Of a stretch of 64,000 nt of DNA, positions 2,998-33,754 are shown piece after piece. The notes below the pieces were generated by a model, which was not told the DNA's origin, made no database searches, and saw only the letters and a program-made list of their open reading frames with translations. The number at the start of each line of letters is the position of its first letter. The stretch's first letter is position 1. Position numbers and translations under genes: made by a program. Source of the stretch: Psammoneis japonica (lineage: Eukaryota); the NCBI GenBank assembly GCA_008632985.1, contig QPGO01000071.1:1-64000 (forward strand). Direction: 5' to 3'.

Positions 2998-3249
2998 GCA
3001 ACTTTGTTTGAAATCTGTTGATGGGCGTTCTTGCACGGGCCTACTTTATATGGTAAGGTCACGGATGTTTTCATAAAGTGTTTGCAATCAGCACGTAACA
3101 TAATCATAGTAGTAGATATTATCACGGCTTCTGTCTCTATGTTGTCATCAACTTACAATCTATCTCTTTTTGGCACTCCCGCGCCTGTCGTTGTCGGTGC
3201 ATGGGGTGTTGCCTCTTCAATGAGACAACGATCAACGCTTGGCGGATGC

Positions 3250-8076: not shown

Positions 8077-9222
8077 ATGGCAAGGAGCCACAGTTGGTTG
8101 AGCACTGCTTCTTTGTGTCGCTTTGTGAGACTTGCTTTCTTGTTGTACCTGAGCAATCTAATAGTTTGCACCACAAGTTGTGCCGCTTTTCCCTCCAAGC
8201 CAAGCACGTTTTCCCCGAGAGAAATCACGACAAACATGAGACAACGAAAGATTTCAAAAGCAACAACTACTGCTACGCCTTCCCAGAATACCTCTCCTGA
8301 ATCATCCTCGTCAAAGGGCGCCGAGGAGTCGGAAAAGGAGTCTCAAGCCTGTTTACGAATGTGCGGCATATTTGCCGTATTAGCCGGCGTGGTGGGAACG
8401 GTAAACATTCTGAATGAAGGGATGGAGGGACTAGACTTTACGAGCTTGGATCCACTCGAAGTTGCCAATTCCTTTTCCGTGATGCATAGATTCGTTTTTG
8501 GAATTGGACTCCTTCGTGTGTACCATTTACTGGACTTGACGCCGACCACACATGTGGTGGATATGGATGCCAGAGATGTTATGACAGTCACACAAACATT
8601 GTCGGCAATGTGGGTCACCTCGGCGGGAGCTCTTCTCGTGGAGTGCATGGTCAAGTCTTGCGTGCTCCAGGAACGGTTTTCAAGCGTATTGACATATCAC
8701 CCCGCAGCAATAACCTTTGCAATAGCTCTTGCTTTCTCTGTGCCAGTTGCCATTATTGCTAAAAGAGCAGAGAAAGAGGCGGAGAAAAGGGGGGCTCCGT
8801 CAGGAAGCGCAGTGTATGCTTCAGCTCGATCCATTGGATTTGTTGCATCTCGCAACATGTGGCTTTGTATCGCTGGATTTGCACTCATGGGAGCTATAGA
8901 TTTGGTCAAAGCTGTCTCAGAGACTAGACTGCTTGATGTCGGGTTTGGACTATTGGACGTTCTCGAGTCGTTCACGATTGGTAACCTACTTTTGAATCTG
9001 AACAACAGTTTCCTGTATTCTGTTGTCAAAGTAACAGAGGGTGGAAAGTCAAAGCCAGAGACATATCTAGGATTGTACCAAGCGCAGAGGAACTTTTACG
9101 GAAAGATTGCTACAATCTTTCGTTCACAAGCGTTCCTCCCTCTCACGCCATACGTAATCTCATTTGCCAAGGCAAAGTTGCCATTGCTAGAAACGTTACC
9201 GTTGCCCTTCCTCAAGCAATGA
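8077..9222 (+). CDS. Multi-pass membrane protein with signal peptide, paralog B
   Basis: Paralog of 1858-2997. Signal-like N-terminus ending 'SCAAF' (possible plastid-type ASAF-like motif). Confidence 0.75.
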   Translation: MARSHSWLSTASLCRFVRLAFLLYLSNLIVCTTSCAAFPSKPSTFSPREITTNMRQRKISKATTTATPSQNTSPESSSSKGAEESEKESQACLRMCGIFAVLAGVVGTVNILNEGMEGLDFTSLDPLEVANSFSVMHRFVFGIGLLRVYHLLDLTPTTHVVDMDARDVMTVTQTLSAMWVTSAGALLVECMVKSCVLQERFSSVLTYHPAAITFAIALAFSVPVAIIAKRAEKEAEKRGAPSGSAVYASARSIGFVASRNMWLCIAGFALMGAIDLVKAVSETRLLDVGFGLLDVLESFTIGNLLLNLNNSFLYSVVKVTEGGKSKPETYLGLYQAQRNFYGKIATIFRSQAFLPLTPYVISFAKAKLPLLETLPLPFLKQ

Positions 9223-9325
9223 TCACGCTATGCTGAAGTTCCAAAGTCAAAAGTAGAATAAACCGTTTCAAACTATTTTAACCATAAGACACCAATTACT
9301 GGAACCACAATATTTTTGCATCTAA

Positions 9326-10596
9326 CTATGCACCCTGCGGACGAATCATCACATCCTCCAAAGTTATCTCATACGCGTCAGTGGCGAGCGTCTCTGGTGG
9401 AATGCATCTGTCCTCTTTGCGTTCAAGCAGTGGCTGGCCAACAAACCTCTGCTCCGCTTCAAGTCGACGCATCGTTTCAATAGGATACTCTTCCTCTCCC
9501 GTAATTCCGTCTGGCAACCTTGAGAGCTCAACAGCGACGCGATATCCCGACATGAGACTTTGCACCCACATCATAACCTTGGTCACGTATTCCTCCGTAC
9601 TTTGCGGTGATCCTGCCGGAGCAACGACTGGACACGACAGTACATTTTGATCTCCACCTTGCGACCAGATTCCTTGGCCGCATCCATTCGGACTTTGTAA
9701 TACGGGCTAGTAAGAATGAAATCGAGACCCATGGGCAAAAGCCCCTGCACAATATCCCACTCGGGTCTGTCTGAAAGGGAGCAGTAGACACTCTCGGGGA
9801 GACCATTAGAGGCGTAAAACAGAAATTTTCTTCTTTCCGTTTGTATCTTCTTCGTTGAATCGCCAAGCTCAAATTCAACGTCTTCAACACCATCCTTCAT
9901 GGTGGTGACATACAGGCAAAGCGTTGATCCCGACTCTGACTCGCGTACATCATATTCAATCAACAAAATAAAGGTACTTAGCATCACTTGTACCCGCTTT
10001 TGAAGAAAGAAGCGTGTGTGAAACGCGTTGAGGCACATGGCAACGTGTTCTTCTCGCGAAAACACGCCATGATCGGAGCTTATATCCGCAGCAATTACCA
10101 TGCCTTTGGGTGGAGGGATTTGCGGAATATCATCCGGTTTACAAGGATTCAAGTCCAGTACGATCGTCTCCAGTCGACCTTTGGTACCATCCTTACTATC
10201 GACAGCAACAATCGGGTTGTCGGTGCGAGTGTCGTGGTACGTAAGACGCGGCGTAAGTTCTTCTTTCTCGGGAGACATGGACCACTCTGGAACAACGTGA
10301 TTGGTAACACCCACGTCATGATAAAAGGTTTCGTTGACATGCTCATTGGGACACCGAACTTCCCTCCGTGTCGTCGTGTCCGTAGTATTAGCAGCAGCGC
10401 TACGTGCTGCTGCTGCTTCTTTCGCTAACCGCTTGCAGTCCTTCTTGTGTCGAGGCCAGTCCTTGAGTTGACAAGCTTTGTCATGGTACCATACACTCTT
10501 GCAGCGAGCGCAACGCATCAAAGGAGTGCTCCTTCGAGGGCCTCCGCCACAGCTGCAACAACGAGGCTGCTGCTCTGCTCCACCTCGGGACGCCAT
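9326..10596 (-). CDS. MYND zinc-finger protein (one frame break near 9600-9650)
   Basis: ATG at 10596 (MASRGG). MYND pattern 'CCSCG...LMRCARCKSVWYHDKACQLKDWPRHKKDC'. The C-terminus appears to continue in a second frame to 9326. Confidence 0.75.
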
Positions 10597-13063
10597 GGTG
10601 CGTATCTTTGCACTTTGGCACCTTTTTGCGGCTTGTAGTCTTGCGCTGAACGAAGATTTCGGAGTTTTGAAATTCCGAACTCCCTCCAACGTCGTTTGAG
10701 TGCTAAAGAATTTTAGCACCATTGGAAGAAGAGGCATGTAGAAGATGGGCCACAGCATGATTGAATCCATGGAATCATCATCATGCAAATCTGGAAATCT
10801 GAAATCCTTGTGGAAGAATTCGAGAAAACTAAACCTCCCAATGTGAACTTTGGTGACCCAGCAGGAAGAAGTTTGAGCCCCACTTCTTGCTTCTTGCTTC
10901 TGTCGTGAATCTTGTTTTCCAGATCTTTGCTCTTGTTCTTTGTTTGGAGCAAACAAAACAAGAGATCTCATGTCGCTGCAAAGGCACAGCAATGAAGCCT
11001 GCCAGCCCCGGCACTCTGCTCCCCTTGGTCTTGTTGGGACTTCAGTGCTGACCATTGTTGGAAATGTGTGCCAACACAATGGACACATGGCTGGTTCTTG
11101 GGTGAGACAAAGCCAAGATGCGCAAAACATGCTGTGGATGGAGCGCGCATGTGCACAACAAAAGAGTTTCTCACTTCATTGGAGTGGCCAACACCCAGCT
11201 GCTGGCACATGCTGTGTTCTTTGTGGGTGCAACAGACAGGAGTCTCTCTGAGGACAGCAGTCTGAACTTGGTCAGCACTGGCTTTGTTGCTCCTGCTGCT
11301 CTGTTTGAAAGAGAGGTGGAAAAGGTGTGAGCCCAACTTCTGTTTTGGAAAGATTTTTTCAATCTTGAAGGAGTGGATGGGTCAAAGATGAGCAGCAACA
11401 AAGACAAAGAGAGCAACAAGCTGAGATCAGGAGAGCCAAGTTGGTTGATGCTCTGCTCAAGCTGACAAACGTGAAGTGACCACCAAAAAGATTTTGGCCA
11501 GCATGTGGGTCATGTGTGTGCAGAGCTCTCTCCTTGTGAAAGTTGGCAATGCACTAAAAAGAAACAACTTTTTCTGAGCCTGAGTGTCCCAAGACTTGCA
11601 ACAACAGAGAAAACATGATTTGGAGCAAGGAGTGTGATCTCTTCACATGAAGGACATGCAAAAAGAAAGCACTCTGAGTGCAAGACCAAGACTGGTGGGC
11701 TGGTGTGACAAAGCTGTGTGGAAAACAGGATTGAAAGTTTGGAAAACTGAGAAGAGAAATGGAGAGCAAATCCAACATCATCAAGCAAGCTTCTTTTGGC
11801 AACCATCAAGGAACTTGGAAATGATGGTGTGCATGAAAGGAAGTGTGAACCCACCACTCCAAGCTTCCAAGGCACAGAGGGCATTGCAGCATTGGGCAAT
11901 CAAGGCAACAATGAAGACCTGCTGTCCCACTGTACAAGCAATTGTTGGCAGAGTTTGTAGAAAGGTCCGATGGTGGGATTTTGCTTCTGGGGCCAGCAGA
12001 GAAGTGCTGTGCCTTTGAACCTGACAAGGTGATCAAGATTGAAAAAGCCAAGTTTTTAGCTGGCATCTTCTTGGGTGGCACTTGTCAGAAGAAAAAATGG
12101 CTGCAGACTGAATGGTCTGCTGTGAACTGATCCAAACCTCCTCATGACATGCCAACCCCAAGTGCCACACATGTGCAAGCTAGACTGCCAAGCAAACAAG
12201 AAAACAAGAAACATCCGGAAGAGACGAGAGGATCAAGTTCCATGCCGCACCCCCCCACCCATGTCAGATCAACAGGATCAAGTTCCCACCTGACCAATGA
12301 CTTCCACCCACTCCTGACAGACAACAACCCATTTGTCCCCAGACACAATGCAATGAACCACCCTGCAAGAAAGCCCAGACAGCACAGAGAAACAAGTGTT
12401 TGAGCAACAAGAGAGATGATTCACGACATGCTCAGTGAGCACACCAACCCAACCAATGGGAGTCATTGAGCCACAGGATCATGACTCTCAAGACTCAACA
12501 GTGACAATCCCAAGCACTTCAAAAGATGGGCTCATCCTCCATTGCACCACAACAGACAACTCAAAGGCACCCAAATCCAAACAGTCTCCCTCCTGGGATG
12601 ACCCAGCAGTGGAGCCTGCCGAAACACCTTTGGGCTCAGTGGATCCCAAGGTCCTTGAATCCAGACAGTGCTCTCCTTGGAGAAGCACCCAGTGGAACCT
12701 GCAGAACAGGAGCCACCTTCTCAGGCTGTTTTGGCAGTTTTTTCTCAGGCATTGAAACCCAAAAAGTCTTCCTCTGAGGTCAACCCAGAACCCAGCAGAG
12801 CCTCATGTGCAGTGGCATCCTGGAACCAACTCTGGCTCCTCAGCCAAGTTGCTCAACCCCACCCACCCACCCACCCAATGAAGCCCTGCTCCAGCTGATC
12901 AGTCACATCACCTCACAACCTCCTCAACCACCATCAAAACTGATCTTCTCCTTTGAGCCTGCAAAAGAAGCAGCTGAACAAAACTGGATGATTCTCTCTC
13001 AATGTTTCAACCTTGATGATGAGAGAGCACTTCAAGCACAACAAACATCCATCCCAGGCTGTG
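10441..13063. repeat. Left arm of a ~2.6-kb diverged inverted duplication
   Basis: Reverse complement of 26229-28801. The ends match (cttcttgtgtcgaggcc / ggcctcgacacaagaag; atcccaggctgtg / cacagcctgggat), and the ORF 'MSTPTQPMGVI.PQDHDSQDST' appears at 12435(+) and 26846(-). Confidence 0.9.
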
Positions 13064-14095
13064 CATTTGGATCCGGCACTTGTCCATCCAGGATGCATCA
13101 ACAAGAAGCTCAACCTTGGTTGTGCATGACAGCGTCTGACATCACTGCAATGCTTGAGCATCATTTTCAGACAGCTCCAGATGAGACACAGAGGAGTTGG
13201 GTTGAGACTGCTGTGTGTGGCCCCAACAAGGGAAGTGGCCTCAACATGACTCTGGCAGAGGTGGAGCAGCTCACCGGCAAGCACAATGATGCAGAAGAAA
13301 TGACAGGAGTGTTGGAGGAGAAGAGAGAATCCAGCTGATGGCTGCTCTCTAGAGAGCAGGCCCCAGTTTTGATGAAGAGCAGCAGTGACTTGCTCCAGAC
13401 AGCAGGTGCCACCGGTGTTTAGAATGATGCAGTCTGGTGCCAACATGGACCAAGCGGTTTTGCGTGTGCTGGCAGGGCCCTCTGCAGCAGCCAGAGAGAG
13501 AGAGAGAGAGGTGCTGTGGACAATGGCGCAAACAACGGGTTGGGTTTTGTGTGCAATCTTTCATCCTTCTTGCATGACTCAAATGAAGCGTGGCACCACA
13601 ACCATTTTTAAGAAGAGGTTTTGGCCAACTTGGGTGGTTTCTGTCAACAGTGTCATGCAACAGGGCTTTGGCATCCAACTCAAGTGGTGTGCTGTTCTGT
13701 GTTTGCAAAGGGGCAGGGAGATGCTGCACAGCTTGGGGCACAGCGAGGAGGACAAAGAACACCAGTGCTGGCTGGAACAAAAAAGAGCATGACCAAGGTG
13801 GGCTGTGTCATGCAAAAGATTTGCAATTGGTGCTTGTCAGTTTTGACCCCACCAGCGCTTTCGGTTTGCCATTGCAAACACGAGAACGAATGCGGCAAGT
13901 TCACGCGATGGCTTGTGTTCTTGCCCGCGCTTGATGGCAGAGCTCTCATTTTTTGATTTTTGGGATTGGGGGGTTCACTTTTTTGTGTGTTGCGTGTTTC
14001 ATGTGTGACTGGCTGTTGCATTGTTGTGTGAAAAAAAGAAACATCGACAGCAGAACACTTGCAATGAAAAGACTGGTTGGCCAAAGAAACGAAAC

Positions 14096-17000
14096 AATGC
14101 ACTCAAAGCCCTTGCACAGCAGAACCAATGATGACGATGATCGGAAACCTCCGGTGATCCCCACCAGATGCCCAGATGGCAGGGACTCGGAGAGAGACAA
14201 ACATGATGTTCGTGCAAAACAACCTGAATCTTCAGCCCAGCCAGCAAATGACAATCCCCCCGATGAATTTCAGGGCCAGCTTGGTGTTTTGGGAGAAAAG
14301 AGGCGTCTCAAAGGCCACAGAACGCATGACAAGAATGTGGTGCCTGGTGCTGTGGCCGTTGGTCCCACAGAGAACAAACCAGCTTGTTCGCACATGAAAT
14401 CTGTTGTGGACGAAGGCTGTCCTTCTTTGACGGCACCAAAACACCATGACATTGATCGCGAGAAGCAAAACATGCACCAAGGCATGCAATCCTTGTCCCA
14501 AGATGCTCTGCTCGAGGACAAGACCAGAGAAGTCTACAGGCATCGCCCGAGCATGGAAGAGGAGAAAACGGAGGAGGAGGAACCACACCAGGAAGGAACC
14601 CCATCCCATGACATGATTGACATGGCTCGGGCAATGAACGCACCAGCTGATGGGGAGGCCATCAAATCGAAAACAAACATGGCTCCATTGGTCGAGTTTG
14701 TGTCTGGACCCCATTTTACGACAAGGTCTGAAACCAAGGAGAGCATTCCGAAACATCTCTCTGCCGCCATTGGCGATGAATGATTGGCTGTGGCAGCAGA
14801 GGTCGTTCCTGGAGAAGAGGATCTTGAAGCCCAGGTGCAAGCTCGAGTCCACAAAGAAAGAGATGAAATTGCATCTCAAGTCCAGAAACAGATCATGGAG
14901 CAAGCCAAGCCAGCCGAGCTTGTGGTGATCAAAAATTCTGACGATGATGCGACCTTGTGCTGCAACAGGCAGAGGAAATGGATGGCCCTGATGGGACTTC
15001 TCGCAATGATCGCGACTGTTGTCAGTCTTGTTGTCACCCTTCTTCCGTCTGATTCCAACACTGATCCAGATCCCGATCCAGATCCAGACCCGATCAAAAG
15101 CAGTTGTGCGTTGTGTGAAGATGGGTTTTCTCCAGTGGACCCACATGATCTTGCTCTAGGAGAAGATGGTGTCACCCGCGCGGACTTCAATGAGACACTG
15201 GGGCAACTCAATGTTGCTGGTGAAGCTTGTTTGCAGGGACAAGCTCAGGCTTGGCGACACTGTGGTTGCCCCACCCTGCCCAATCTCCTGAGTGTGAACG
15301 TAACTTGTGCAACATGCATGAATGTGCCCATCCCCTTGGAGATGCCCCAGCTTCGTGTTGACAACAAATCATGTTCTGAGTGGAATGCACACATGGCGCA
15401 TGTTCTGTCAGATTCACCGGAGTGCAATTCGTTGAGGGCTGACTTGTGGGACGCCGTTGACCAATGCACGTGCATTGAGGATCCAACGTTTCTCCAGCAC
15501 ATTTCTCACAAACTCTTTCCTTTGTCTGGAGAAGCACTGTTGGAGGACGGAATGCCACAGAACATTGTGCTGAATTGGCTTGCGCCAAAGATCCAGCCAG
15601 CCTCTCTGTCAAAACCACCGTAAAGAAAATTCAAGAATGTTGTGCTCTTGCTGCACTGTGCTGTGCAACAGAAGGCATGACGCGGGATGATGACTGCACA
15701 TTTCTTTCGAGCAAAAATGCATGTGAGTGGAGCGATGGCAGCAACGGCGTTTTTGCGCTGGCAACGCCATTGAAAAAATCAGTTTGCGCAAGTCTTTGAA
15801 ATGCAATGTCCGGCGTTGCGAAGCTTGGTGTTTCTGACAAAAATTGCTGACAAATGATGAAACTTTCCACAGCTCACAATGGCTTGCACGGGATTCTCCC
15901 GCTTGAAATGAGCATTTCATCACAGCTGAAGTTCATTGAGGCAAACAGCAACAATCTCATCGGCACTCTCCCTCAAGAATTTGGTGGCCTTACAAAGCTT
16001 GAGAGGTTTGATGCCGATTTCAACTCAATGACTGGGTCAATGCCGGCATCGCCACTTGGAATCCAGAGTCTCCAAGAGTCATGGCTTGACGGAAATCAGT
16101 TTTCGGGATCAATGCCATCCGCTTTTGGAAAATCTCTGTCCTCCTTTGCATGCAAGGGTTGCCTGCTGAATGGCAAGCTGCCAGAATCTGTCGGTGACTT
16201 GAGTCTGTTCTGTCTTGACCTGTCATCTAACGGCTTCATTGGCAGCATTCCTTCCTTTTCCGGGAGTTCCAAATTGCAGCATTTGCATCTCAGTGATGAC
16301 GAGTTCACCGGAGAACTGCCTCCTTCTCTTGGCAGCCTCACACGGCTGGAGCAACTCCATCTCATGAACAACAAGCTGACAGGAACAATCCCCAGAGCAA
16401 TTGCCGCCTTGCCATCCTCAGTTGCCATTGACATTCAAGGGAATCATCTTTCTGGCCCCATGCCTCCTTTCACTGGCGACCAGGCATCAGAGGTCTGGGT
16501 GCATGGAAACAATCTTGCTGGCCCTCTTGACGAGTTTTTTGGCTCGTCCTCCTTGGAGACAATTGTGCGGGTTCGTTTCGAGAACAACCAGCTGTCGGGG
16601 ATCCTTCCTGAAACAATTGGAAATTTCGTCCATGTGGAAGAATTGGACATTTCGTCAAATGAAGTCATTGACAAGATCCCTTCCTCTGTTGGTGATCTTG
16701 CAAACTCATTGGATTGGATCTTTTCGACAATGAGCTTTCCGGCCCTCTGCCATCGGAAATCAGAAATCTGCTGGAGCTGGATTGGCTTGACCTCAATGGC
16801 AACTCCTTGAGTGGTGCGATTCCTCCATTGGTTGGGACCCTGCCTTCGTTGAGGTCAGTTCATTTGAATGGAGATGATTTGACAGGGGAGATTCCTCCTT
16901 TTGTTTTGGAAAAGCCAGAGCATCTGTGGCTTGCAGAAAATCAACTGGGCGGCAAACTCGAGAGCTTCTTCACCTCGACGAACCCAGCTTCATTGAGGTT

Positions 17001-17625
17001 TGTTAATTTCGTAGCGAACAAGTTGTCAGGAAGTCTTCCTGAGGCTGTCGGCAGTTTCTTGCAGCTCAAAGAGATGAAGCTGAATGAAAATTCGTTTGCT
17101 GGTGCCATCCCATCAATGTTGGGGAACCTTGAGAATGTTGGATTAGTTTGGCTCAATGATGCTGGGTTCACAGGTTCGATTCCAACGGCGCTTGGGCACC
17201 TTGGAAAGCTCAGCAGCCTTGATTTGGGACAAAACAACTTAAGTGGGACAGTGCCGACCAAGCTTGGAGGCTGCACTGGTCTCTCCTCACTGGGCATTCA
17301 GCTTTGTGGTCTCAGTGGATCATTTCCCTCTGTTGTGGCGAATCTCAAGAATCTCGGTGGGCAACCGTTTTGGAATGTGGCCAACTGATGCTGGAATTCT
17401 AGTGTTTGTGTTCCTGCAATGTCTCACACCATTGCACTTGTGTCATTTCGTGCAGAGGAGCTCTACATTCATGGCAATGCTTTTGCCAACACCTTCAGTG
17501 AAACATTTTGCATGCGAGAGAACTTGATTGATGTCCTCTCCTCAAACTGTCTCAATGATTCTGTGGATTGCTCATGCTGCTCTCACTGTTGCAATGCTTT
17601 TGGAAACAATTGCGTGGAACAGTGA
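14096..17625 (+). pseudogene. Leucine-rich-repeat receptor-like membrane protein pseudogene (diatom-expanded family)
   Basis: N-terminal 'PGAVAV' and 'LAVAAEVV', TM 'WMALMGLLAMIATVVSLVVTLL', Cys-rich modules, then plant-type LRRs 'L.L.NNKLTGTIP', an intron remnant at ~17357-17454 and a terminal 'CSCCSHCC'. Multiple frameshifts; the family motif RYALA.LYY reads 'CCALAALCC'. Confidence 0.85.
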
Positions 17626-18350
17626 TTCAGCACCACGAGTTGCTTTCGATTGTGTCACCTTTGGTGTCTTCCATTTCTTGTTTGTTGTTCATGGATGCGC
17701 AACCTGCATCAATCACATTTGACCTTGCATTCTTGAGACAATGACACATGCTTCCCGGCAAGGCGTTGCATTGTGAAGCAATGGCATTGCTTGCACAAAC
17801 TCTTTTTACCATTCAATGTAGACCCACAATTGTGGTGCCAATCGTCCGACGATTGCCCTCCGTCGCTCATTCCCTTCTCTTGCTTGTGACTGGTGCACTC
17901 CCTGTGCGCAGCACAATGCGTGTTGATGGAAAGCTCCTGACGAGCTGAACGAAGTCAAATGCATGTTGTGATGTCGGAGTGAGCAGTGGAAAGTGAATGT
18001 TGTGACATGGGGACATCCCAATGAATTCAGCCAGTGGCTAAAAACCTCCTGTAGAATTCTGCGCATTTCTCCTGACATGAGACACATTTGATGACAATGC
18101 CTTTTAACGCCACCCCATTGTTTTCTTTCATGTGCATGATGTCATTTGAAGTTTTTTGTTTTTGTGTTTATTTTTTAATGCTGAAAAGCTGAATGTTTCA
18201 TGTGAACGAACGTTGCAGTCAGCAGTGAACCATCACAGATGTGACACTCATGGGTTCAGCAAAATGGACAGTTGATCAGGCTCACTGCAAAGACACACAA
18301 ACCAAACGAAATAAAACATGCAATGACGGCCAGTGACAGTTGCACAAAAG

Positions 18351-18810
18351 CCAATCCAGGTGCATTTGTCGAGTTCCCAGTCCAGATGTTGTGAGCAAAT
18401 GACGCAAAAGCGGTCCCAGCACGCCCAACAACAAGGATGAGCGCGAGATTGATCACGCTCAACTCTGAGGATGCATGACCAAACAAATTGGGCACACAAT
18501 GGTGACCCAACATTGTTGCAGTGAAAGCCAATCTAGGTGTTTTTGTTGATTTCCAAGTCCAGCCATTGCACACAAACAACGCGAGGGCAGTTTCAGCACG
18601 CCCAATGCCCAACAACGAGGATGAGCATGAGATTGACAATGCTCAACTGTGAAGACACATTTCCAAATGAATCAGACACACAGCATCAGCGACAATTGTT
18701 GCACGTGAACCAGTCCAGGTGTTTTTGTTGAGTTCAAAGTCCAGCTGTCATGCACAATCAATGAGAAGGCAGCTCCGGATGCGCCCCAGATTGATGTCAG
18801 CAGCGCTGGT
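18351..18810. repeat. Decayed tandem repeat, ~180-bp period, ~2.5 copies
   Basis: 'aggtg..tttgt.ga.tt...agtccag' recurs near 18355, 18533 and 18714. Confidence 0.7.
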
Positions 18811-19074
18811 CATCCAGGTCGACCCCACAACCCAAAGCTCAATCCACATCACTCATGGGGCCTCAACGATGCAAACAACAGAGTGTCAATGCCCTGCTGT
18901 TGAACATGAGACAAAATGAACAACTGTGAGTGAGACAAGGGCAGGCAACAACACCCCCAAAAACATCAAAACACAACACTGTGCCACAAGAAGCACAACT
19001 GCAACTCAACACACTTAAATTTCTCACCACAATGCCACAAGGCATGCATGTTGTAATTCACATGACAGGGATTT

Positions 19075-22000
19075 TTGGACTTGCGAGGAGCAAGGCACAG
19101 GGTGCCATCTGGATTGCGGGTGAAGTCACAACCAAGATGGAACTCCAATGGTCCAGTGCCCTTCTTGAGCTTGAACTTGCATTTCTCCATGAGAGTGTCT
19201 GCAAAAGCCTGGGGGTCCTTCATGGCAAAGGCCAGGTCATCCACATGCACTGCCATGCATTTGCAGTGGTCACCATTCCCACGCAGCCAGATGTCAGGTT
19301 TGGCTTTGCACGGGAAGAAACCTTCGGCATGCAAGCAATCGGCAAAGCGTTCATGCCATCTGAGGCCGGAGCTGTGGAGTCCGTGCAAGGCCTTGTGGAT
19401 GACAAAGATGTGTCCTTCCAGCTTGCCAAATTTGGGGCCTGCTGCAATGTGCAGTTTCTCCTTGGTCGCATCTTCAAGATGGGCATTCCCAATGTCGGTG
19501 GCCCAAGTCTCCACCAGTTCATTGAGTTTGGCCAGGAAGATCATCATTTGCAGGCTGCGGAGAGACGCTGCTCTGGAACAGACACTGTTGACAGGTGTGC
19601 GTCTGTGAGGTGTCCATTGGCAACAAGCCTTGCTTTGTGCCGTCTGTCATGTTTGACATCACAGACGAGATGCACCCAAATCTTCTTGTGTCCTGATGGA
19701 GCGCTGGAATCCTTGCAATGTCCACAGTCATGGAAGACCTTGCACTCATCAAGCTGAGTCATCTTCAGGTCCGTTGCATCTCCCCACTTGCAGTTGCCAT
19801 TGTGCTCATTGAGGGCCAATGCATGCCTGCAGTCCCGGGGCACTTCACACCTGCACTTGTGTTGTGGCGCAGCATGAAAGGAGTGCAACTTGGCTTGATT
19901 GGCCATGCAGAATGGTTTCTTCTGATGCAGAGCCATCTTGTGGAAATGTTTCCATCCTTTGGTTTCAAGGAGGCCATGCTCACATGCGCAGATGGCACAG
20001 GTGATGGGATTGTCCTTGGCAATGATGGCAAGGGGTTCCACCAACATCATCTCCCCATTCCCCCATTCAAGCATGACGTTGCAGCTTGAGCCTTTCCAAG
20101 AGGGGTGGATCATGAGGTTGCAATGGTCTTTCTTGTGGTGCAATGCATTGGAACTTCCAGAGGGTGGTGTCTTTGTCTTCTTGCTCAATGTGGTGCATGA
20201 TGTCGTTCCAGGCAAGGACTTCCTTGCACTCATTGTTGTTGATGGAGCAAATGAACTTGACCAGTTCAGGGTTGTCTCCAATTTTCCAATCATGGTCTTC
20301 AACGGCTTTGATGATGTGGACTCTGTGGCATTGTCTGTCCTCTTGTGGCTTCATGAGGAAGGTGCGTCTGATGACCTCCTTGGGGTCAAAGACCGGCATT
20401 TTGGGCATCCTGATCCCCTCCCCATCTGGTGAATCCGGTGAATCCTTGGAGTCATGTTGGGATTTAATGACGGGTTCAGCAGATTCCTCATCAGGAGGGT
20501 CAAGACGCAGGTTTGGGGTGGACGGATCACGGGCAGAACATGTGTTGCAGTGGTGGAGAATCTTCTGAGTGTCAGAGAGGATCTTGAATGTCATCTGATG
20601 ACCAACGTGTTTGGCGGTGCCAATGAAGTGACCGCACAACTCACGGGATTTGGACGGCCAGTCAGAATCGTTGAGGTGGCAGTGCACGGGTTCCCACCAT
20701 TGAAAGTGCAGGGGCAGGCTGATGTCGGGGGCAGAGCTGGATGGCACCTCGGTGGGAGTGCACCAGCAAAGCTTGGCAGATGCCGCATGGTTGAGCACAA
20801 AGCACACACACATCAGGGCCCTTGGCCAGGAGCAGGCCGGGGATTCAAAGCAATCCATGATGGTGTTGGCCATGGTCTTCACAGTTTGGTGGTGGCATTC
20901 AGCAAAATTCTGGTGCTGTTGGTGGGGCTCGCTTTGCCAACTGGAGATGAAGAGGGCATGAAGGATGCTGAGAACCTTGTTGCTGATCTCAACCTGAGCA
21001 CGGTCCTGATGAGCTTGGATGGGGCACCATGATTGTGGATGTTGTCTTCAAGCATGTTGACAAATTCCTTGTCAGGTTTGGTTCTGTGCATGTCCATGAC
21101 AAGAGATTCCATGCCGACAAAGATCTGGGAACCGGTGCAGCCGGAGTCAATGGCGGGGGTGTCAGAGCACACCGTGTCAGTGGCAACGGGTTCATCATGG
21201 CGGTGGACATTGAGAGCCGGGTCACCCATGTTGGCAGGCATGTGGGTGCACTGTGTTGTGCAATCAAAAGCATGGCAAACAGTGTCCTTCAGGAGAAAGC
21301 CAAAATGAGGGCGCAGCAACTCAAAGTTGGGGTCCTTGGGATTGATCTTGCACTTGTGGCATTCGCAGAAGAAATCAGACGTCGGGAGCAGGTGGTCATC
21401 AAGGACAGAGTCCACAAGCATGGCATTGTTGATGACATGGCGGTGACGACAGTTGCCGAAACTCATCAAAGAGGTTGGCAGTTGGGTCGTCTTGGAGGTC
21501 AGACATGGCATCACACCACGTCTCATTGTTGGTGAGCTGATGGTTGAGGACAGATGGGTCCCAAGTGTCATTGCCAGTGAGGACGACATGTGGCAGGGTG
21601 TCCCATTTGGCATCGGTGTGTGGACACATGGCAATGTGCGGAAGGCCACCTTTGATGTTGATGGGAATGATGCATCCATCAATGGTGGTGATGGGCTGCA
21701 GACCGTTGGGGACCTTGATGGACCAATTGTTGATGTCGTGCTTGTGCCATTGGAGTTGACCACAAGAGTGTGTGGTCTTGCCCTTTCCAGTGTGGGCACA
21801 CTGGTGAAGAATGGCAATGACAGGTCCGTGTTGTGTGCAGATGACACCACCGGCAGTGACAACGGGAACATCGATGAGCTGATGATTGTCGATGCCTTGC
21901 ACGTCAACCTGGTGATCAGTGCAGGCAATGACATGAGAACATCATCACCGGTGATGCCACCGTTTGAGCCATGATCCACGAGAGCACCCTTGTGAGTCAA

Positions 22001-24422
22001 GGTGTGGGTTGATGCAGAGCAGACGACATTGTGATTGATGACATGACAGTGAGTGTGACCGTTGAGCTCAATGTCAGCATCGGCAGTGCAGGAAGGTGCA
22101 GATCCAGGGGGGTTCTTGCCAGAGCGGGCAGAAGGAGGCCGTTCAGGTGCCAAGAGATGTCACAAGTCACCGGGTGGCAAAGGCTTGCACCTGGTGAGGT
22201 GAGCCAGGATGGGGTTGACATTGGCTGTGATGGCTGCAGCAACAGATGGTGCGGCGGCCGACGCAAGATCATGAGCATTGGCTGGCAAGTTGACATTGCC
22301 ATCACTTCCAAGATGGAGAAGGTCACGCAGGTTGACTGCCATTGAGTCATGGCAGTTGCCGGCGTGGGCGGTGCACACGCCAAGGATGATGGCCTTGGTG
22401 GACTGAGGCAAGGTGCCCAGATGCGCTGGTGATCCGGCAGAATGCAACGCCATTGTTCCCTGGTGAGGGAGGTGCCATGAGTCTGTGCAGCGCAGGCTTG
22501 AATGACGTCAATGGGATGAACGGCGTTCTCAAGCATGACGCGTTTCTGGTCAGCAGAGAAGTGGGGTCTGCACTTGGAATGAGAGCTTTGCACTTGCATG
22601 GCTGGTCCTGCCAGCGAAGTGTGAAAGCATGGGTGGAGCCTTTCCAGGTGCCATCACCAAGGCGAGCAGTGGTGAGGTGCGTGAGAAGGGTTGAGGACTC
22701 CAGGGATGTGCGGGCAGAAGCAAGAGCGCACTTGGACAGGTCACGATGCACCGCTTGAGCATCAGAGGAGCCGACATGTTCACGAACAAGTGCCTTGCCT
22801 TTGTCATTCTGCAAGATGTGTTCAAACATGGTGAACATGCACTTCTGTTGTTCATCAAACAGGGCCTTGTCCTCAAGCTGCAGAGGGACTGCACGTCGGA
22901 TCGAGGGTGCAGTCGACGTCCTGGGAGCGGGCCTGTGTGATGACAGAGGTGTGCCACATGTGCCACTGTTTGTTGGACTTGAGAGTCACAAAGGCAAGTG
23001 GGTCAGGTTTGACACCTTGTTTAAAGCCATGCATGGGGTCACATGGTTTTGGTGGCAACAAGCCAGGAGCAGGAGCAGGGGCGCTGTGCCCATGGAGAGG
23101 GACGTCACATGCTCGGGACTGAGACAACAGTCAGTGAACTCCTCATGTGTGAACAAGTGGGGGTCATTGCTGACATTGGCACCACCGTGCACTTTTGCCG
23201 TGTACAGACTAATCAGTGCAGCCATCTGTGCTTTGCAGCCACATGGCAAGGGCATTTGATTGGTGCCGTCATTGCAATCTGGGGCATCCAGTTGCGTCGA
23301 GCAAAGGTGAAGAGATCCTGGCACGAGTCAGTGCCGTCAATGTTGAGGGTGGAGTGCAACGGAATGTCTGCGGCTTGATTCGGAACAGTGCCTAGAATGT
23401 GCTTGAGGCCATTGATTTGTTGCTGCCTGGTGAGGACCGTGTTGCAACTGGGTGGGTGTCGGGACACCAGCTGGAGTTGGAGGGTGAGCTTGAACCAACT
23501 TGAAACTTGACTTGAATCTTGGCTTGAAGTCTTGAACTATCTCATGAGTCAGAAGCCACCAGCCAATGACATCTTGCTCATAGTTGAGTGCCAAGCTTCC
23601 CATCCGGTCCGCAGAGTTGTGCCGGCACGTTCGAACCCACAGCTGGCAACACTTTGGGATGTCTGAGAGCGGAGTGACGGGTTAAAAACCCCTGCTGACA
23701 AGCTGACCAGAGGTGGACAAGACCTCCAAACCATTCTCATTTTATGTCGGTTGGATGACCCGATCAGGCCGGCCAAGTTTGGCACTGTGGAGGGACGAAC
23801 AAATGCAGGAAATGCACCCTTGCCCCAATGCAGGCTGCAATCACGAGCTGCTTCCTCTCACAGTTGTCCTGGTGGGCCTCGCAGCACTGTAGAAGACCAG
23901 CAATCCGGTGCAGATGTGAGGCAGCAGACTTGGCATGCGTGCAGCAAAGCCAGAGTCAGACGATTGTGTCGTGTTCGCGTGAACGCGTGCGGATGGATTG
24001 GTCTGTCTGCCAACCAGGGTGGAGTCCGCTGCAGGGAATCCGGAATCTCGCATGTCTGAGAGTTCGGGAATTCCTGACCAAACAAATGTCTGTTGAACAA
24101 ACACATCCAACGACGGAAGGCATGCTGACAGAAATTGAAGATGACTGGGTGGAAGAAAACAACAACTTTCCTTGCTGCTGTCCAAATGGCAGATTGGCCG
24201 GAAGCCGGAAGACTGGTGTCGTTGACATCGGCGCCACTGTTGTCATTCTTGCGAGCCATGTGGCTTGAAAGCAAACTGCATCACACGATGCATGCGGAGC
24301 TGAGAGCACACACAATCATGTGTGACAAACTAAAATCTTGTTCAAATCCTGTCTTTGAGGTTTCCAAGTGTGCGACCTTGGCTTGACTCCCTCGCACAGT
24401 GTCAGTGGAACCTGCGCCAACA
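19075..24422 (-). mobile_element. Decayed Ty1/copia (CoDi-type) LTR retrotransposon, truncated inside RT
   Basis: Gag-like 'FKQGVKPDP..F.TLK..KQW', protease-like 'ALVDHGSNGG', integrase-like 'EPVATDTVCSDTPAIDSG', RT 'LVCDVKHDRRHKARLVANGH', 'DIGNAHL', 'KALHGL', 'HVDDL'. No RNase H or 3' LTR found. The 5' boundary (TGTTGG at 24422) is tentative. Confidence 0.9.
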
Positions 24423-24449
24423 TTTTGCAATCTGGGTTTCCCATCTGTG

Positions 24450-26228
24450 CTTGGAATTTCACGTTCCATCATGGCTCTTCTTCTTTCAGCAATGGGTTGT
24501 CTTCAAACACACCAGCGCCTTGTGTCGCATCGATGAAACCATGACAAGATCAAACATCGGCTCACCAACTGACGAGTGGCACCATTTCGTGTGTCACTCC
24601 AAAATGGTTGGCTCAAATTGGTTGCTGTCTCTCTTTAGATGGTGGCTGCATTGGTGCTCCAATGCGAGCAGATCTTTGAGTTCTTCATTGCCCATGTCAT
24701 TCAAAAAACACACTGCTGTCCCTGAAACAAGACTCTCCCTCCCGCAACATTTCTGAGCAAATTTTACCCAGTTGCAAACAGGTTTTCCAGAATGGCACCT
24801 TGGGTGTGCCCTGACCACCCCAATGCCGTCTGTGTGCACTTCTGTGGACCCCATCATGCAAGTGGCTGTTGGGCAATGCCTTCTCACAGCATGGCACAAA
24901 CATTTTGTTGCTGACAGAGGCAGCTCTGGTCCTTGGGTTTTTGAGAACCATTCCTGGGTTGCGTGGGCCCAGGTTTCAGCCAGCTCCATTGTTCCCACAC
25001 GAAATTCCACTGACACTTCTTGCACAGGACCCTGGAAGACTGCTTGGAACTTGGTGCCATTCCCTTGCTCCTTGCTTTTTGACATTGAGTTGCTTGGGCA
25101 GAGACTGCAAGCGGACCTGGCGGTTGAGGCCAGCATCTTTCCTTGCAGGTTCTTGGCTGTTTGGATTGCAAAAGAGCCATGATGCTTCTGGGCTTGTGAG
25201 CCCAGGTCCTTCGCAAAGCACTTGTGGTTGCTCTCCATCCTGTCAGTTTTGCAGCCATCTGGGGATCCACACCCAGACATGTTTTTTGGTGAGTGCTCCA
25301 GACACTCAATTTTTTGAAGGTCCCATCCATTTCCCACACTTCAGCTTCAACTTGCCACTTTTTTTGCCAACTTTGACTCAAGGGGCCGTTCCAAGAATGC
25401 CTTTGATCACAACGGCAATTGACTCTGAAGCCCTTTCCTCACAATTTTCCCCATCCGTCATGTTGTTGGCATTCCAGAGCCCATCTTTTCTCTTTGTCCA
25501 GGCATGGAAGCACAGAAGCATTTCCATTGGTTGAGCCCAGTTGTTTGTGGCAAGTTGGTCTTTGTCGTCACAGTCCATCCAAGTTGCTTTGAGTGCTTGA
25601 CATTCCTCCGCAGAGGACTCTTTCAAGTCATTGGCCTTCTTGCATGATTTGCTGCGATGTTTGTTGAGTGCATTGGTGAGCCATCTCTTCTTGATTCCCA
25701 TTCTGAGAACAGCGGCAATGTGGGACAGGGCACCAATGTGCTCGGTTGCCCTGAGGCAGCTGAGATTCGTCACACCAAACACAAACTCTGCTTTTGGGCA
25801 ACCGGACATTTCTGTTTGTGATTTCAGGTTGACAACAAGGTGCAGCATTCTTTCAAGGTCTGCCCTTCCACTGTTGCCAAGACATTCATGGAACACCTCA
25901 AGCACCTTCTTCATGACACCTTCGTCAAAGGCATGCATCAGATTGGTTGGTGTCATGCAAAACACTCCACCAACTGGGTCCACATTCAGTGTTTTGAAAA
26001 AGCATTGCACACCAGATGAAGGGACATTGATGACAGGGATTCTTTTGCTTCATCTCTGCGTGCTTCTGTGTGGTCAGTTGGACCCAACGCCACATGCATG
26101 ATGGGCTCCCACTTTTTGTGAGTCAGAAATTGGCACTTGTGGCTGGGGTCATGTGTGTGGTCACTGGGGCAGTCACATGCCCAATGAAGTTGGCTGGCTT
26201 GGTTCCTTCCACACACAGAATTCTGAGC
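24450..26228 (-). mobile_element. Decayed Plavaka-like (CMC-related) DNA transposase fragment
   Basis: Motifs 'GGVFCMTPTNLMHAFDEG', 'FGVTNLS.L.A.E..G', 'GNGWDLQK..CLEH', 'GSP....DRMESNHK.FAK', 'AHPRCHSGKPVCNW' resemble Plavaka-type transposases. Frameshifted. Confidence 0.6.
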
Positions 26229-28801
26229 CACAGCCTGGGATGGATGTTTGTTGTGCTTGAAGTGCTCTCTCAAGATCAAGGTTGAAACATTGAGAAGATT
26301 CATCCAGTTTTGTTTGGCTGCTTTTTTGCAGGCTCGAAGGAGAAGATCAGTTTTGATGGTGGTCAAGGAGGTTGTAAGGTGATGTGACTGATCAGCTGGA
26401 GCAGGGCTTCATTGGATGGGGGGGGGGGGGGGTTGAGCAGCTTGGCTGAGGAGCCAGAGTCGGCTCCAGGACGCAAGTGCACATGAGGCTCTGCTGGGTT
26501 CTGGGTTGACCTCAGAGGAAGACTTTTTGGATTTCAATGCCTGAGAAAGAACTGCCAGGACAGCCTGAGAAGGTGGCTGTTCTGCAGGTTCCACTGGGTG
26601 CTTCCAAGGAGAGCACTGTTTGGATTCAAGGACCTTTGGATCCACTGAGCCCAAAGGTGTTTTGGCAGGCTCCACTGGGTCATCCTGGGAGGGAGGCTGT
26701 TTGGATTTAGGTGCCTTTGAGTTGTCCATTGTGGTGCAATGGAGGATGAGTCCATCTTTTGAAGTGCTTGGGATTGTTGCTGTTGAGTCTTGAGAGTCAT
26801 GATCCTGTGGGTCAATGACTCCCATTGGCTGGGTTGGTGTGCTCACTGAGCATGTTGTGAATCATCTCTTGTTGCTCAAATGCTTGTTTCTCTGTGCTGT
26901 CTGGGCTTTCTTGCAGGGTGTGGTTCATTGCACATTGTGTCTGGGGACAAATGGGTTGTTGTCTGTTGTGAGTGGGTGGAAGTCATTGGTTGGGTGGGAA
27001 CTTGATCCTGTTGATCTGACATGGGTGGGGTGGGGGGTGCGGGATGGAACTTGATCCCTCGTCTCTTCTGGATGTTTCTTGTTTTCTTGTTTGCTTGGAG
27101 CAGTCTAGCTTGCACACGTGTGGCACTTGGGGTTGGCATGTCATGAGACCATTCAGCCTGCAGCCATTCTTTTCTTCTGACAAGTGTCACCCAAGAAGAT
27201 GCCAGCTAAAAACTTGGCTTTTTAATCTTGATCACCTTGTCAGGCTCAAAGGCACAGCACTTCTCTGCCAGCCCCAGAAGCAAAATCCCACCATGAGACC
27301 TTTCTGCAAACTCTGCTGACAATTGCTTGCACAGTGCAACAGCAGGTCTTCATTGCCACCTGTTTGCCCAACACTGCAATGCCTCCCATGCCTCAAAAGC
27401 TTGGAGTGGTGGGTCCACACTTCCTTTCATGCACACCATCATGTGCAAGCAAAAGCTTGCTTGATGACATTGGATTTGCTCTCCATTTTTCTTCTCAGTT
27501 TTCCAAACTTTCAACCCTGTTTTCCATGCAGCTTTGTCACACCAGCCCACCAGTCTTGGTTTTGCACTCAGAGTGCTTTCTTTTTGCATGTCATTCATGT
27601 GAAGAGATCACACTCCTTGCTTCAAATCACGTTTTCTCTGTTGTTGCCAGTCTTGGGACACTCAGGTGCAGAAAAACTTGTCTCTTTTGAGTGTGTTGCA
27701 AACTTTCACAAGGAGAAAGCTCTCCACATCACTCACATGACCCACATGCTGGCCGCCAAAATCTTTTTGGTGACACTTCACATTTGTCAGCTTGAGCAGA
27801 GTGGTGTGCAGCCCTGCACACGTGCATCAGTCAACTTGGCTCTCCTGCTGGTCCAGGCTTGTTTTTCTTTTTGTCTTTGTTGCTGCCCATCTTTGACCCA
27901 CTCACTTCTTCTTCAAGATTGGCAACATCTTTCCAAAGCAGAAGTTGGGCTCACACCTTTTTCCATGTCTCCAAACAGAGGAGGAGCAACAAAGCCAATG
28001 CTGACCAAGTTTGGGCTCCTGTCAATTTCTGAGCACCAGCCCTTCTTTTTAGAGACCCTGGAAACTCCTGTCTGTTGCACCACAAAAGAGTTTCTCACTT
28101 TGTTGGAGTGGCCAGCACCCAGTTGCTTGCACACACTGTGTTTGTTTTGCACATCTTGGCTTTGTTTCATCCAAAAACCAACCTTGCTGTGTCCACTGTG
28201 TTGGCGCACATTTCCAGCAACGGCCAACACTCAAGTCCCAACAGCACCAAGGGGAGCAGAGTGCCAGGGCTGGCAGGCTTCATTGCTGCACCTTTTGCAG
28301 TGACAAGATCTCTTTTTTGTTTGCTCCAAACAAAGAACAAGAGCAAAGATCTGGAAGACAAGATCACAGCCAGAAGCAAGTGGGGCTCAAACTTCTTCCT
28401 GGGTCACCAAAGCTCACATTGGGAGGTTTTATTTTCTTGAATTCTTCCACAAGGATTTCAGATTTCCAGATTTGCATGATGACAATTCAATGGATTCAAT
28501 CATGCTGCACCACAGCCCATGCAGGTGCATCTTCAGCACTGGACGTTGGAGGGAGTTTGGAATTTCAAAACTCCAAAATCTTTGTTCAACACAGAGACTT
28601 CAATGCAAAGCCACAAAAAAGTGCAAAGATGCCATTGTGAGCACCATGGTGGCCCGTGGTGGAGCTGAGCAGCAGCACCATTGTTGCAGCTGTGGTGGAG
28701 GCCCTCAAAACAGCACTCCTTCAATGCATTGCGCTCACTGCAAGAGTGTGCGGTGCCATGACAAAGCTTGTCAACTCAAGGACTGGCCTCGACACAAGAA
28801 G
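26229..28801. repeat. Right arm of the inverted duplication, ending in a decayed copy of the MYND gene 5' end
   Basis: Reverse complement of 10441-13063. 28646-28801 encodes 'MVARGGAEQQHHCCSCGGGPQNSTPSMHCAHCKSVRCHDKACQLKDWPRHKK'. Confidence 0.9.
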
Positions 28802-30824
28802 TTTGTCAAATTTTTGTCATCTGCCCATCAGTTTCTGCCTCCAGACCCAGCACTCACACAATGCTCATGGCAAAAACTCAGTGCAAACATGCAAGCAATG
28901 GCGCTGCTGTGATTGGCCCATCTGCAACCACTCTTTTGCCTTCCAATGCTGAAACAAAACAACACAGCAAATCACCCCAAAGTTTGTTGTGTCAAACTGT
29001 GCTTCTGAGTGTGCAAACACACAATGATGTCAACAATGATGATCAATCATCTGGTCACACCAATGTCGCTGGGCATTTCCATCATTCATTTTGTGCAGTC
29101 TCTGGAGTCGACATGCCAAATCACTCCCATCCAACCATGTCTTTTGTCCGTGACTGATGGCACACAGAACATCTTCCCCACCATGTGCAATTTTTTCACA
29201 TTCATGGCTGGTTGAAGGAAAAGGGAAAAAGGAGGGATTCGACCGTTGAGCACACACACAAATTGACCATGCAACCAGGGCCAGCAGAGTTGCACTGGCT
29301 TCTTTTGGTCCAGAGTGGTTGCTGCAGGTGCAGTGAGTGGGGCACATTGCAGCAGCTGCAGGGGGGTGACAATGTGACACCAAGTGTGTGCTGCCAAGCT
29401 GAGCAGTCCAGCTTGGTTGTGAGCCAAGCCCTGCCAGGCCAGTTGCTTTGGCTCCAGTTGCTCCCACATTGTGCACGTGTCAATTGTTGAAGGAACACCA
29501 CCACATTGACTCAAAAGCTGTGTTTTGAGCAGGACAGAGAGAGAAAAATTGTCATCTTGACTGGTGCTTGCTTTGGACTCTGCATCATGAGCGCAGGCAG
29601 ATGCTGCACACAGCCATTTTTGGCACCTCTCTTTGGTTGCCCACTTGGCATTGTCAACAAACTCTTGAACACAACCTCACTCAGAGTTTCTTCACTCTTC
29701 AACCACAAAAGCAGGTCCAACTTTTTGTTGGCTTTTTTGTGGCCGGGGGTCTCTGTTGCAGGCACAAATGGTGGGCACATGCCACACCATGTGGCTGCAG
29801 GGTGACAATGTCATGCCACCAAGCATTCCGGCAGAAGCGATCGAAAACCCCAACTCACTGTTGACATTTCTGTGTTGGTCAGAATTTGAAATGACCGCCA
29901 CCGTCAAGCACGCAGCTTTCTTTGCGTCAAAGTAGAAATGACACTCAATGATTTAAACTGCTGTGATCATTTGGCTTTCTTTGTGTCGAAGTGGAAATGA
30001 CACTTGACGATTTACACTGACTCACTTTGGCTCGAAGTCAGATGAAGAGATTGGGTCGCGGGCTTGTCGCCAACCAGCCACGAGCATGAAATGTTCGCCG
30101 ATTTGCACGCACCTTGAGGAAGCACCGGCAGGGCCTTGTGGCACAGCGGCGCTGCTCAGCGGCACGTCGCATGAGCCATGTGCAGGGGTTGTGAGTCCCG
30201 AAAAACAGGGTTTGGTTGGGCCGATTTCTGGCACAAAACTCACGTAGAAAATTCGTGTGGAATGCCTTGTTCGTCGTGCTTTTCCCATGCTTTGCAAAAA
30301 ATGGGCCACAACCTCAAGGAATTGATTTCAGTCACAATGGTTGACACTTTGCGTGCTTGCTCTTTTTGATGACAAACACGACGATGTCCGCTGTTCGTTG
30401 GAAAATGTTTGCCGTGGTGGCACGGTGGTGAAGTGTTGATCGAATTTCTGAAAATGGAATTTTGAAGTGTTCACGCACAGAATCGTGTTACTTGTATAAA
30501 AGTCATCATGTAAAGTGTCAATGGTTTCAGGGGAAAACGATTCCTTGAGGCGTCGGTGGAGCAGAGAAGCACGAGAAAAAAATCGGCCCAAACCCTAATT
30601 TTTATAATTTTTTCTACGTAGAATTTCTACGTGATTTTTGTACCAGTGCACATGGCTTATTGGTACCGCGGTACAAGCATTGGTGGTTTCTCGTGATTTA
30701 TTATTACAAATATTACAACAGGGCGATCCAGGAAACTTCGAAGACTTCGAAAGATTCCATATTCCATGACATTTCTGTAAATTATTCTACGTGCAGAGCT
30801 CGTAGGTTGTTGGTACTTTTTAAA

Positions 30825-33522: not shown

Positions 33523-33754
33523 GGGGATTCCCATCTGTGAAGTGATAATTTGGTGTGAAGTGATCACGTAGAATTGTACGTATTTTTTCTAGTACTGAAA
33601 TTCTGATCAGAACGCCACCAACTTATGTTGTGATTTATTAATGGATATAATCATTTGCATACAAATCGCCACAGTAAAGTTTGCCGTCGAGTTCCAGATG
33701 AGAGAAAAATCTATCCCTCCATCTCATCTCTCATCTCTCCTCCACTCAACTTCT
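33523..33754 (+). mobile_element. Second, truncated head-to-tail copy of the left end of the same element
   Basis: ~230 bp identical to 32511-32743 apart from 6 A/G substitutions and one C-run indel. Confidence 0.9.

Follow-up and report, generated by a model that had tools for sequence, protein, structure and literature searches.

Two TpA-depleted domains in the diatom Psammoneis japonica bear the probable footprint of region-targeted TpA-to-TpG/CpA hypermutation

Two TpA-poor islands in a 64-kb window

The window analyzed here is a 64,000-nt stretch of the diatom Psammoneis japonica (contig QPGO01000071.1 of assembly GCA_008632985.1, positions 1 to 64,000), in which intact genes flank two domains almost devoid of the dinucleotide TpA. 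Island B (10831–30488, no strand assigned) is a hypermutated domain of 19,658 nt that contains a Ty1/copia polyprotein pseudogene, a leucine-rich-repeat (LRR) pseudogene, most of an inverted duplication, and a mutated copy of the 5′ part of a zf-MYND gene. Island A (3315–7522, likewise unstranded) is a second hypermutated domain, lying between two intact genes. Observed-to-expected (O/E) ratios in island B are 0.05 for TpA, 0.36 for CpG, 1.64 for TG, and 1.75 for CA; in island A they are 0.11 for TpA and 0.54 for CpG.

Depletion is close to complete. From the TA density of the flanks (1617 TA in 39,602 nt), island B would be predicted to hold ~803 TA and holds 56, a loss of 93%; island A retains 31 TA in 4208 nt, a loss of 82%. 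Per kilobase, TpA O/E runs at 0.00–0.17 across 11001–30000, compared with 0.36–0.81 in the flanks, and the longest TA-free run is 2557 nt (20465–23022), against 221 nt outside both islands. An earlier interpretation of the letters alone, hereafter the sequence-only reading, had described some 20 kb nearly without TpA, no TA at 19081–20460, CG persisting at a reduced level, and many surviving TAs in TTA or TAA contexts. These descriptions are borne out: The stretch 19081–20460 lies inside a 1411-nt TA-free run (19054–20465), CG persists at the reduced level given above, and 36 of the 56 TAs surviving in island B have a TTA or TAA context. The affected DNA is also more extensive than had been supposed, island A having gone unmentioned.

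The compositional change is confined to four dinucleotides. In island B, TA and CG are down and TG and CA are up, while the 12 remaining dinucleotides deviate from their flank O/E values by about 0.1 at most; because AA, AT, AC, AG, TT, TC, GT, and CT all lie within ~0.1 of the flanks, no further A or T context is affected. With both islands pooled, a TA + CG deficit of ~1652 sites is nearly balanced by a TG + CA excess of ~1559, so that two self-complementary pyrimidine–purine steps have been turned into two non-self-complementary ones. No microsatellites that account for the TG/CA excess were found in the window.

Direction, strand use, and a separate CpG layer

The copia pseudogene gives the change its direction. 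Delimited by tblastn at 19080–23085 on the minus strand, it runs from gag to reverse transcriptase and is 3′-truncated, frameshifted, and nearly free of Tyr; Pfam places RVT_2, the copia reverse transcriptase, at 18969–19646 on the same strand. Polarity was read over 726 consensus columns built from 82 intact copia relatives, in which Tyr makes up 2.9–5.0% of residues. The window’s copia open reading frames (ORFs) have Tyr at 1/226, 0/268, 0/326, and 0/426 positions. A single one of 39 conserved Tyr columns is kept, the others including 17 Cys (TGY), 14 His (CAY), and 3 Trp (TGG). Conserved Arg is retained in 18 of 48 columns (15 have become His, 7 Cys, 3 Gln, and 1 Trp), whereas other residues are largely preserved: Pro in 42/43, Trp in 17/18, and Asn in 21/22 columns, with Pro, Trp, Asn, Gln, and His ranging from 91 to 98%. 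The window translation has HVDDL, KALHGL, GNAHL, and LVCDVK where the consensus of 14 intact relatives has YVDDL, KALYGL, GNAYL, and LVYDVK.

Two further comparisons agree in direction. The stretch 10441–10830, which is unmutated, has a paralogous copy within island B in which five of six TA are altered (four TA>CA, one TA>TG) and 12 of 17 CG have become TG or CA; as a rough ratio, 5/6 of TA are lost at ~9% divergence at other sites. Window sequence was also compared with other contigs of the same sample. Among the 40 differences listed (1315 further ones were left out), the window has TG or CA against TA at 22 and against CG at 10; 8 are of other kinds and none is reversed. Other copies of the island A element in that sample carry TA at the 22 sites. 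The signature is real, polarized, and limited to TpA and CpG, and is best read as the work of a domain-targeted process acting on DNA in place. The sequence-only reading had held that Tyr codons were systematically converted to Cys or His and that A:T>G:C change strikes TpA on both strands; the first statement holds for 17 + 14 of the 39 conserved columns and for all four copia motifs, and the second is established by the copia columns, the paralogue pair, and the other copies in the sample. The CCALAALCC motif that it had pointed out in the LRR reading, as a putative change from RYALA.LYY, is present in the sequence.

Both strands were hit, as judged from the roughly equal Cys and His outcomes and from the interleaving of TG and CA, which is random (2078 runs against 2083 expected, z = −0.17); by the same runs test, the islands contain no strand-coordinated tracts of the type left by repeat-induced point mutation (RIP) or APOBEC. 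Survival of TA depends on its neighbors: Observed over expected counts are 4/300 for RTAY, 20/242 for RTAR, 19/275 for YTAY, and 44/158 for YTAR (chi-square P = 4e-16; R, purine; Y, pyrimidine). All 16 contexts are fitted by a model in which each strand is mutated independently; the cumulative hazard falls from TAT (2.99) through TAC (1.57) and TAG (0.77) to TAA (0.49), and the extremes are ATAT (hottest) and TTAA (coldest).

The inverted duplication dates part of this history. Its left arm occupies 10441–13063 on the plus strand, with the outer 390 nt (10441–10830) outside island B and retaining TA and CG; its right arm, at 26229–28801 on the minus strand, is wholly within island B and 83–94% identical to the left. 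At sites converted in both, the arms made the same choice in 380 of 401 cases (TG/TG at 173, CA/CA at 207, and 21 discordant). Since the arms share their states, most conversion is older than the inverted duplication, and the states have been copied like ordinary sequence. The 21 discordant sites, some 20 sites converted in one arm only, and a converted gene fragment indicate that conversion went on after the duplication.

Loss of CpG forms a layer of its own. In a metagenome survey of copia elements, restricted to the best 80 of 200 confirmed related loci, none of the 80 shows TpA depletion (TA O/E 0.45–0.95), yet several have CG O/E as low as 0.03–0.06. Relatives thus undergo CpG decay while their TpA stays normal, which separates the two losses. 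Within island B itself, the count per kb spans 6–41 for CG but no more than 0–8 for TA. The CpG loss is read as ordinary decay of methylated CpG to TpG/CpA, superimposed on the TpA loss. Transposon methylation in diatoms is established (PMC2806351, PMC9998398), and the islands resemble methylated-CpG decay of diatom transposons in the CpG>TpG/CpA change, in the sharing of domains, and in the Arg>His/Cys/Gln/Trp outcomes at 26 of 48 columns. They are unlike it in that such decay cannot remove TpA: The expected CpG>TpG/CpA change is found for the CpG part and explains none of the TpA loss.

Similar reverse transcriptases exist in public data. Among the best 150 cluster representatives matched by the window’s reverse transcriptase, six have less than 1.5% Tyr against a median of 4.5%, and a second protein search added two of 118 below the same level. 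The eight fragments (P0226, P0253, P0306, P0374, P0410, P0331, P0249, and P0223; 0–1.5% Tyr) come from ENA or JGI contigs of 1.9–10 kb, are 40–60% identical to the window’s reverse transcriptase, and have Cys or His at three to seven of seven conserved Tyr columns (7/7 in P0226 and 6/7 in P0374). In several of them Arg is retained, as would be the case had TpA been lost and CpG spared. They may derive from this same species. No relatives were found in a survey of viral contigs.

Domain borders, contents, and read evidence

Depletion follows domains and takes in whatever they contain. TA is dense up to 10830 and again from 30489, and the transition at domain borders is completed within ~100 nt. 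Inside, the copia transposon, host-gene fragments, and unannotated DNA are affected alike; the flanking genes are intact. The LRR pseudogene (15851–17385, plus strand), identified by Pfam matches to LRR_1, LRR_8, and LRR_4 on the ORFs 15851–16807 and 16696–17385, is a host-type gene and not a transposon. Copy number varies widely among these parts. Summed contig depth over the copia part 19175–21175 is ~20,000, against ~60 on unique DNA, which implies hundreds of related copies; these differ mostly by transitions (A>G 273, G>A 277, C>T 257, T>C 248, with each transversion at 20–37). Summed word depth puts island A at ~4–8 copies, and the LRR part and the duplication arms come out, by summed depth, at ~1–3 copies at 85% likeness.

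Repeat homology does not govern this pattern. The duplicated 390 nt at 10441–10830, beside the zf-MYND gene, are unmutated while their copy inside the island is mutated, and stretches with one to three copies are fully depleted. With a duplicated stretch spared and near-unique DNA hit, targeting does not track repeat homology, and the proposal of a repeat-targeted mutator, made in the sequence-only reading, finds no support in the window. We infer that the target is set by chromatin or methylation state.

The zf-MYND gene (9583–10596, minus strand) is apparently intact and borders island B, whose edge lies ~235 nt upstream of the likely start codon, placed at 10596. Its ORF as listed spans 9583–11130, with ~180 codons extending into the island, because TA-free DNA is without TAA and TAG stops. 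DNA of this kind can stop translation only at TGA, so that long spurious ORFs arise, neighboring genes are falsely extended (as at 9583–11130), and gene callers overpredict; island B has 107 stop-to-stop ORFs of at least 90 amino acids in ~20 kb. The mutated copy of the gene’s 5′ part (28142–28819, plus strand; tblastn) retains 57% amino-acid identity with one in-frame stop, and in its zinc finger WY has become RC.

A Pfam scan of 133 stop-free ORFs returned no families above threshold beyond RVT_2, the LRR families, and zf-MYND, and one match below it; in that scan no domain was found in 23300–26200 or in island A. Three diverged tandem copies of ~180 nt each (18347–18787, unstranded) adjoin the truncated copia end, and island A has internal 241-nt repeats at 4974–5433.

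Reads exist from three runs, all of one sample and study, of which X1 bears on the base calls. Contigs from run X1, which is perhaps the assembly’s own data, differ from the window by one base over 10929–11682, none over 11687–12071, one over 13034–14295, and none over 15790–16631. Word depth in X1 on TA-free matches is 66–75, compared with 56–61 on unique flanks, and in the unique island parts the X1 contigs (exact 31-mer) include no TA variant at half depth. The match with run X1 excludes a polishing error.

Two smaller features of the reads may be recorded. At 14491–14526, all X1 contigs differ from the window at four positions, two of which are TG or CA in the window and CG in the reads; either a local variant or a minor error of assembly would account for this. 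In run X2, whose library type is a guess, the genes within 2500–22499 are covered, as is a form of the island A element that bears TA, whereas island B is almost absent.

Candidate process, precedent, and alternatives

Taken together, these observations make it probable that a region-targeted process converts TpA to TpG/CpA (A:T>G:C) on both strands of putatively silent, transposon-rich domains, to near saturation, with methylated-CpG decay in addition. As we picture it, a domain would be marked by its chromatin or methylation state; adenine at TpA within it would be deaminated to hypoxanthine and read as G at the next replication, the two strands being hit independently. The outcome would be an irreversible inactivation of mobile DNA through lost Tyr codons, TATA-like motifs, and AATAAA signals. 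On the chemistry we are about evenly divided: By analogy with the proposal for Bigelowiella natans discussed below, it may be enzymatic adenine deamination in DNA, the simplest route and the leading candidate.

Several points weigh against this interpretation. The domains that have lost TpA have lost CpG as well, and one enzyme may act on both A and C. Run X1, perhaps being assembly data, does not confirm the sequence independently. Except in the copia element, the 390-nt paralogue, and island A, it is composition that indicates which way the bases changed, and the putative link to transposons, methylation, or chromatin concerns one 64-kb window. The context preference can be read from the base 3′ of A or from the base two positions 5′, and the survivors fit either; in a test of tetranucleotide outcomes the excess is 366 for the base 3′ of A and 295 for the base two positions 5′, a weak lean to the 3′ base.

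The closest precedent comes from the alga B. natans. In its mutation-accumulation lines, 231 of 302 mutations fell in two silent viral inserts, and 230 of the 231 were A>G or T>C, all stated to fall on TpA; the rate was ~6e-7 per site per generation, ~1000-fold over background, with only some lines active (Mettrop et al., bioRxiv 10.64898/2026.01.13.699255). The preprint also reports 124 TpA-poor, CpA + TpG-rich clusters in the genome and an enrichment of reverse-transcriptase domains among TpA-depleted coding sequences. It proposes, without proof, an ADAT2 homologue as DNA adenine deaminase, citing DNA editing by amphioxus and trypanosome ADAT2, and its main text makes no mention of diatoms. 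In the literature searched we found no report of a TpA-loss signature in diatoms, and the accessible parts of the diatom transposon papers that were term-searched make no mention of hypermutation, dinucleotides, or deamination. The statement in the sequence-only reading that this had not been described as a transposable-element-inactivation pathway in diatoms therefore stands as far as diatoms go; the same TpA-only A:T>G:C hypermutation had, however, been measured in B. natans. The window adds a second host for a kind of hypermutation described once, in an unrelated alga, and here it concerns a diatom and transposons and is near saturation.

The two hosts agree in TpA being turned exclusively into TpG/CpA, in both strands being hit, in the restriction of the change to regions of silent, foreign, or mobile DNA (silence being putative here), in the involvement of single-copy DNA and reverse transcriptase, in a TpA-poor, CpA + TpG-rich footprint, and in having an adenine deaminase as the proposed agent. 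They differ in lineage, B. natans being a chlorarachniophyte (Rhizaria) and the present host a diatom (stramenopile). The window’s CDC23 accords with this placement: Among at least 120 homologues listed, all nine that carry organism names are diatoms, at 52–60% identity, and none of them is Bigelowiella. Targets differ too, being viral inserts in B. natans and here a copia retrotransposon, a host LRR pseudogene, and a gene-fragment copy, and erosion has gone further, to a TpA O/E of 0.05 against a Rho of 0.45 for the B. natans giant-virus insert. CpG decay (CpG O/E 0.36, Arg>His/Cys) is found here, whereas B. natans shows almost no G:C>A:T; we ascribe this discrepancy to a process of its own, given the relatives in which CpG has decayed and TpA has not been lost. 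In B. natans the mutations were observed in lines, while the window holds a footprint alone and yields no rate. The preprint’s main text does not contain the word “trinucleotide”; flanking-base context, if reported, may be in its supplements.

RIP in Neurospora and other fungi is alike in being an irreversible transition hypermutation that inactivates mobile DNA where it lies, prefers certain dinucleotides, and is sharply bounded by region. RIP is triggered by and limited to duplication and needs a homologue of the RID/DNMT4-type methyltransferase. The window departs from a duplication-triggered process, the duplicated 10441–10830 being spared and near-unique stretches hit. RIP is also a C>T change, mainly CpA>TpA, and so creates TpA (PMC2621366); here the opposite is seen, with TpA O/E down at 0.05 and CpA up at 1.75, and the sequence-only reading was right to call the pattern the reverse of RIP. 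DNMT4 is present in many diatoms, with its function given as unknown (PMC9998398).

APOBEC and ADAR editing in animals is likewise a deaminase-driven hypermutation that restrains mobile elements. The substrates of those enzymes are cDNA or RNA, and the tracts they leave in retroelements are specific to one strand, whereas here the hits are spread randomly over both strands of any chromosomal DNA in the domain. For TadA and ADAT2, an A after U or T is the natural target position (U33–A34), and these enzymes and the TadA-derived laboratory adenine base editors share with the islands the habit of a T or U before the target A. A TadA-like DNA adenine deaminase preferring 5′-TA, proposed in the sequence-only reading, is a candidate. 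We know of no natural DNA adenine deaminase for which TpA specificity has been demonstrated.

A thymine-side route, in which a TET/JBP-type enzyme oxidizes T at TpA to 5-hydroxymethyl- or 5-formyl-uracil that mispairs with G, is an unlikely alternative to adenine deamination, though one that the symmetric signature accommodates: T>C at TpA is indistinguishable from A>G on the other strand. Dinoflagellate DNA has its 5-hydroxymethyluracil enriched at TpA, and 5-formyluracil can pair wrongly with G. The window offers no evidence on modified thymine, however, and the only experimental precedent reads the pattern, likewise without proof, as adenine deamination.

We consider it very improbable that the islands are a base-calling or assembly artefact, in which a true TA with a modified base is misread by the sequencer. 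The platform of run X1 is not recorded, and the possible identity of X1 with the assembly’s own data would leave room for such an error. Against it, the TA-free sequence recurs in exact 31-mer contigs at single-copy depth, and the same reads do show TA in other copies. The internal evidence is stronger than the match with X1: Strand-specific misreading would make whole versions uniformly TG or uniformly CA, whereas the two are randomly interleaved, and the arms of the inverted duplication agree on TG or CA at 380 of 401 sites. The eight public reverse-transcriptase fragments, which may be from this species, have the same Tyr>Cys/His pattern.

Slighter still is the prospect that ADAR- or ADAT-like A-to-I editing of retrotransposon transcripts became fixed when these were reverse-transcribed and reintegrated. 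In its favor, no identifiable element is larger than the copia retrotransposon, and ADAR usually favors U upstream of the edited A, according to the discussion in the preprint (bioRxiv 10.64898/2026.01.13.699255). Sense edits would nevertheless give Tyr>Cys only, and 14 of the 34 Cys/His/Trp outcomes are His, which needs T>C on the coding strand. The LRR pseudogene, the gene-fragment copy, and unannotated DNA are equally depleted, and depletion stops at domain borders, not at element ends.

Error-prone repair of the Pol-eta type (WA>WG; W, A or T), acting on T:G mismatches in methylated DNA, was a candidate of the sequence-only reading and would fit the sharing of domains by TpA loss and CpG decay; it deserves hardly any credence now. 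WA includes ApA, which is untouched (AA O/E 1.18 in the island and 1.16 in the flanks), CpG-decayed relatives elsewhere keep TpA, and within the island the loss of TpA is even throughout, in contrast to a sevenfold variation in that of CpG. A compositional origin from a TA-poor foreign source, or selection against TA, has nothing specific in its favor beyond a mildly low TA genome-wide (O/E 0.58) and is scarcely credible, given that conserved Tyr codons were mutated in place, that the paralogue pair differs exactly at TA and CG, and that the affected sequences are frameshifted pseudogenes in which selection at 93% of TA sites is implausible.

For region-targeted conversion of TpA, a second and distant host changes a single-species curiosity into a candidate for a widespread eukaryotic defense against mobile DNA. 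The window displays an end state beyond that of the mutation-accumulation study, with near-total TpA loss, a flanking-base preference, and random strand use, and it adds domain borders that ignore repeat homology as well as independence from CpG decay. More tentatively, and with the balance of our judgment tilted against it, diatoms and chlorarachniophytes, perhaps much of the SAR supergroup, might share a chromatin-guided defense in which an enzyme deaminates TpA adenine in duplex chromosomal DNA. Were this true, transposons and integrated viruses would be driven to a TpA-free, Tyr-codon-free state, in mirror image of fungal RIP, and dinucleotide specificity would be seen for the first time in a natural DNA adenine deaminase. 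Diatoms include transformable model species, which places the responsible enzyme within experimental reach, and a natural DNA adenine deaminase specific for TpA would be of interest for base editing.

Elsewhere in the window, tandem arrays with units of ~181 nt and ~177 nt lie in otherwise normal DNA at 47666–48208 and 48713–49392, respectively; the kilobase 48001–49000 has a mildly low TpA O/E (0.36) and high TG (1.56). In TA-normal DNA, a 232-nt direct repeat (32512–32743 and 33523–33754; 96% identity, 1011 nt apart) possibly marks the two ends of a short element of recent origin.

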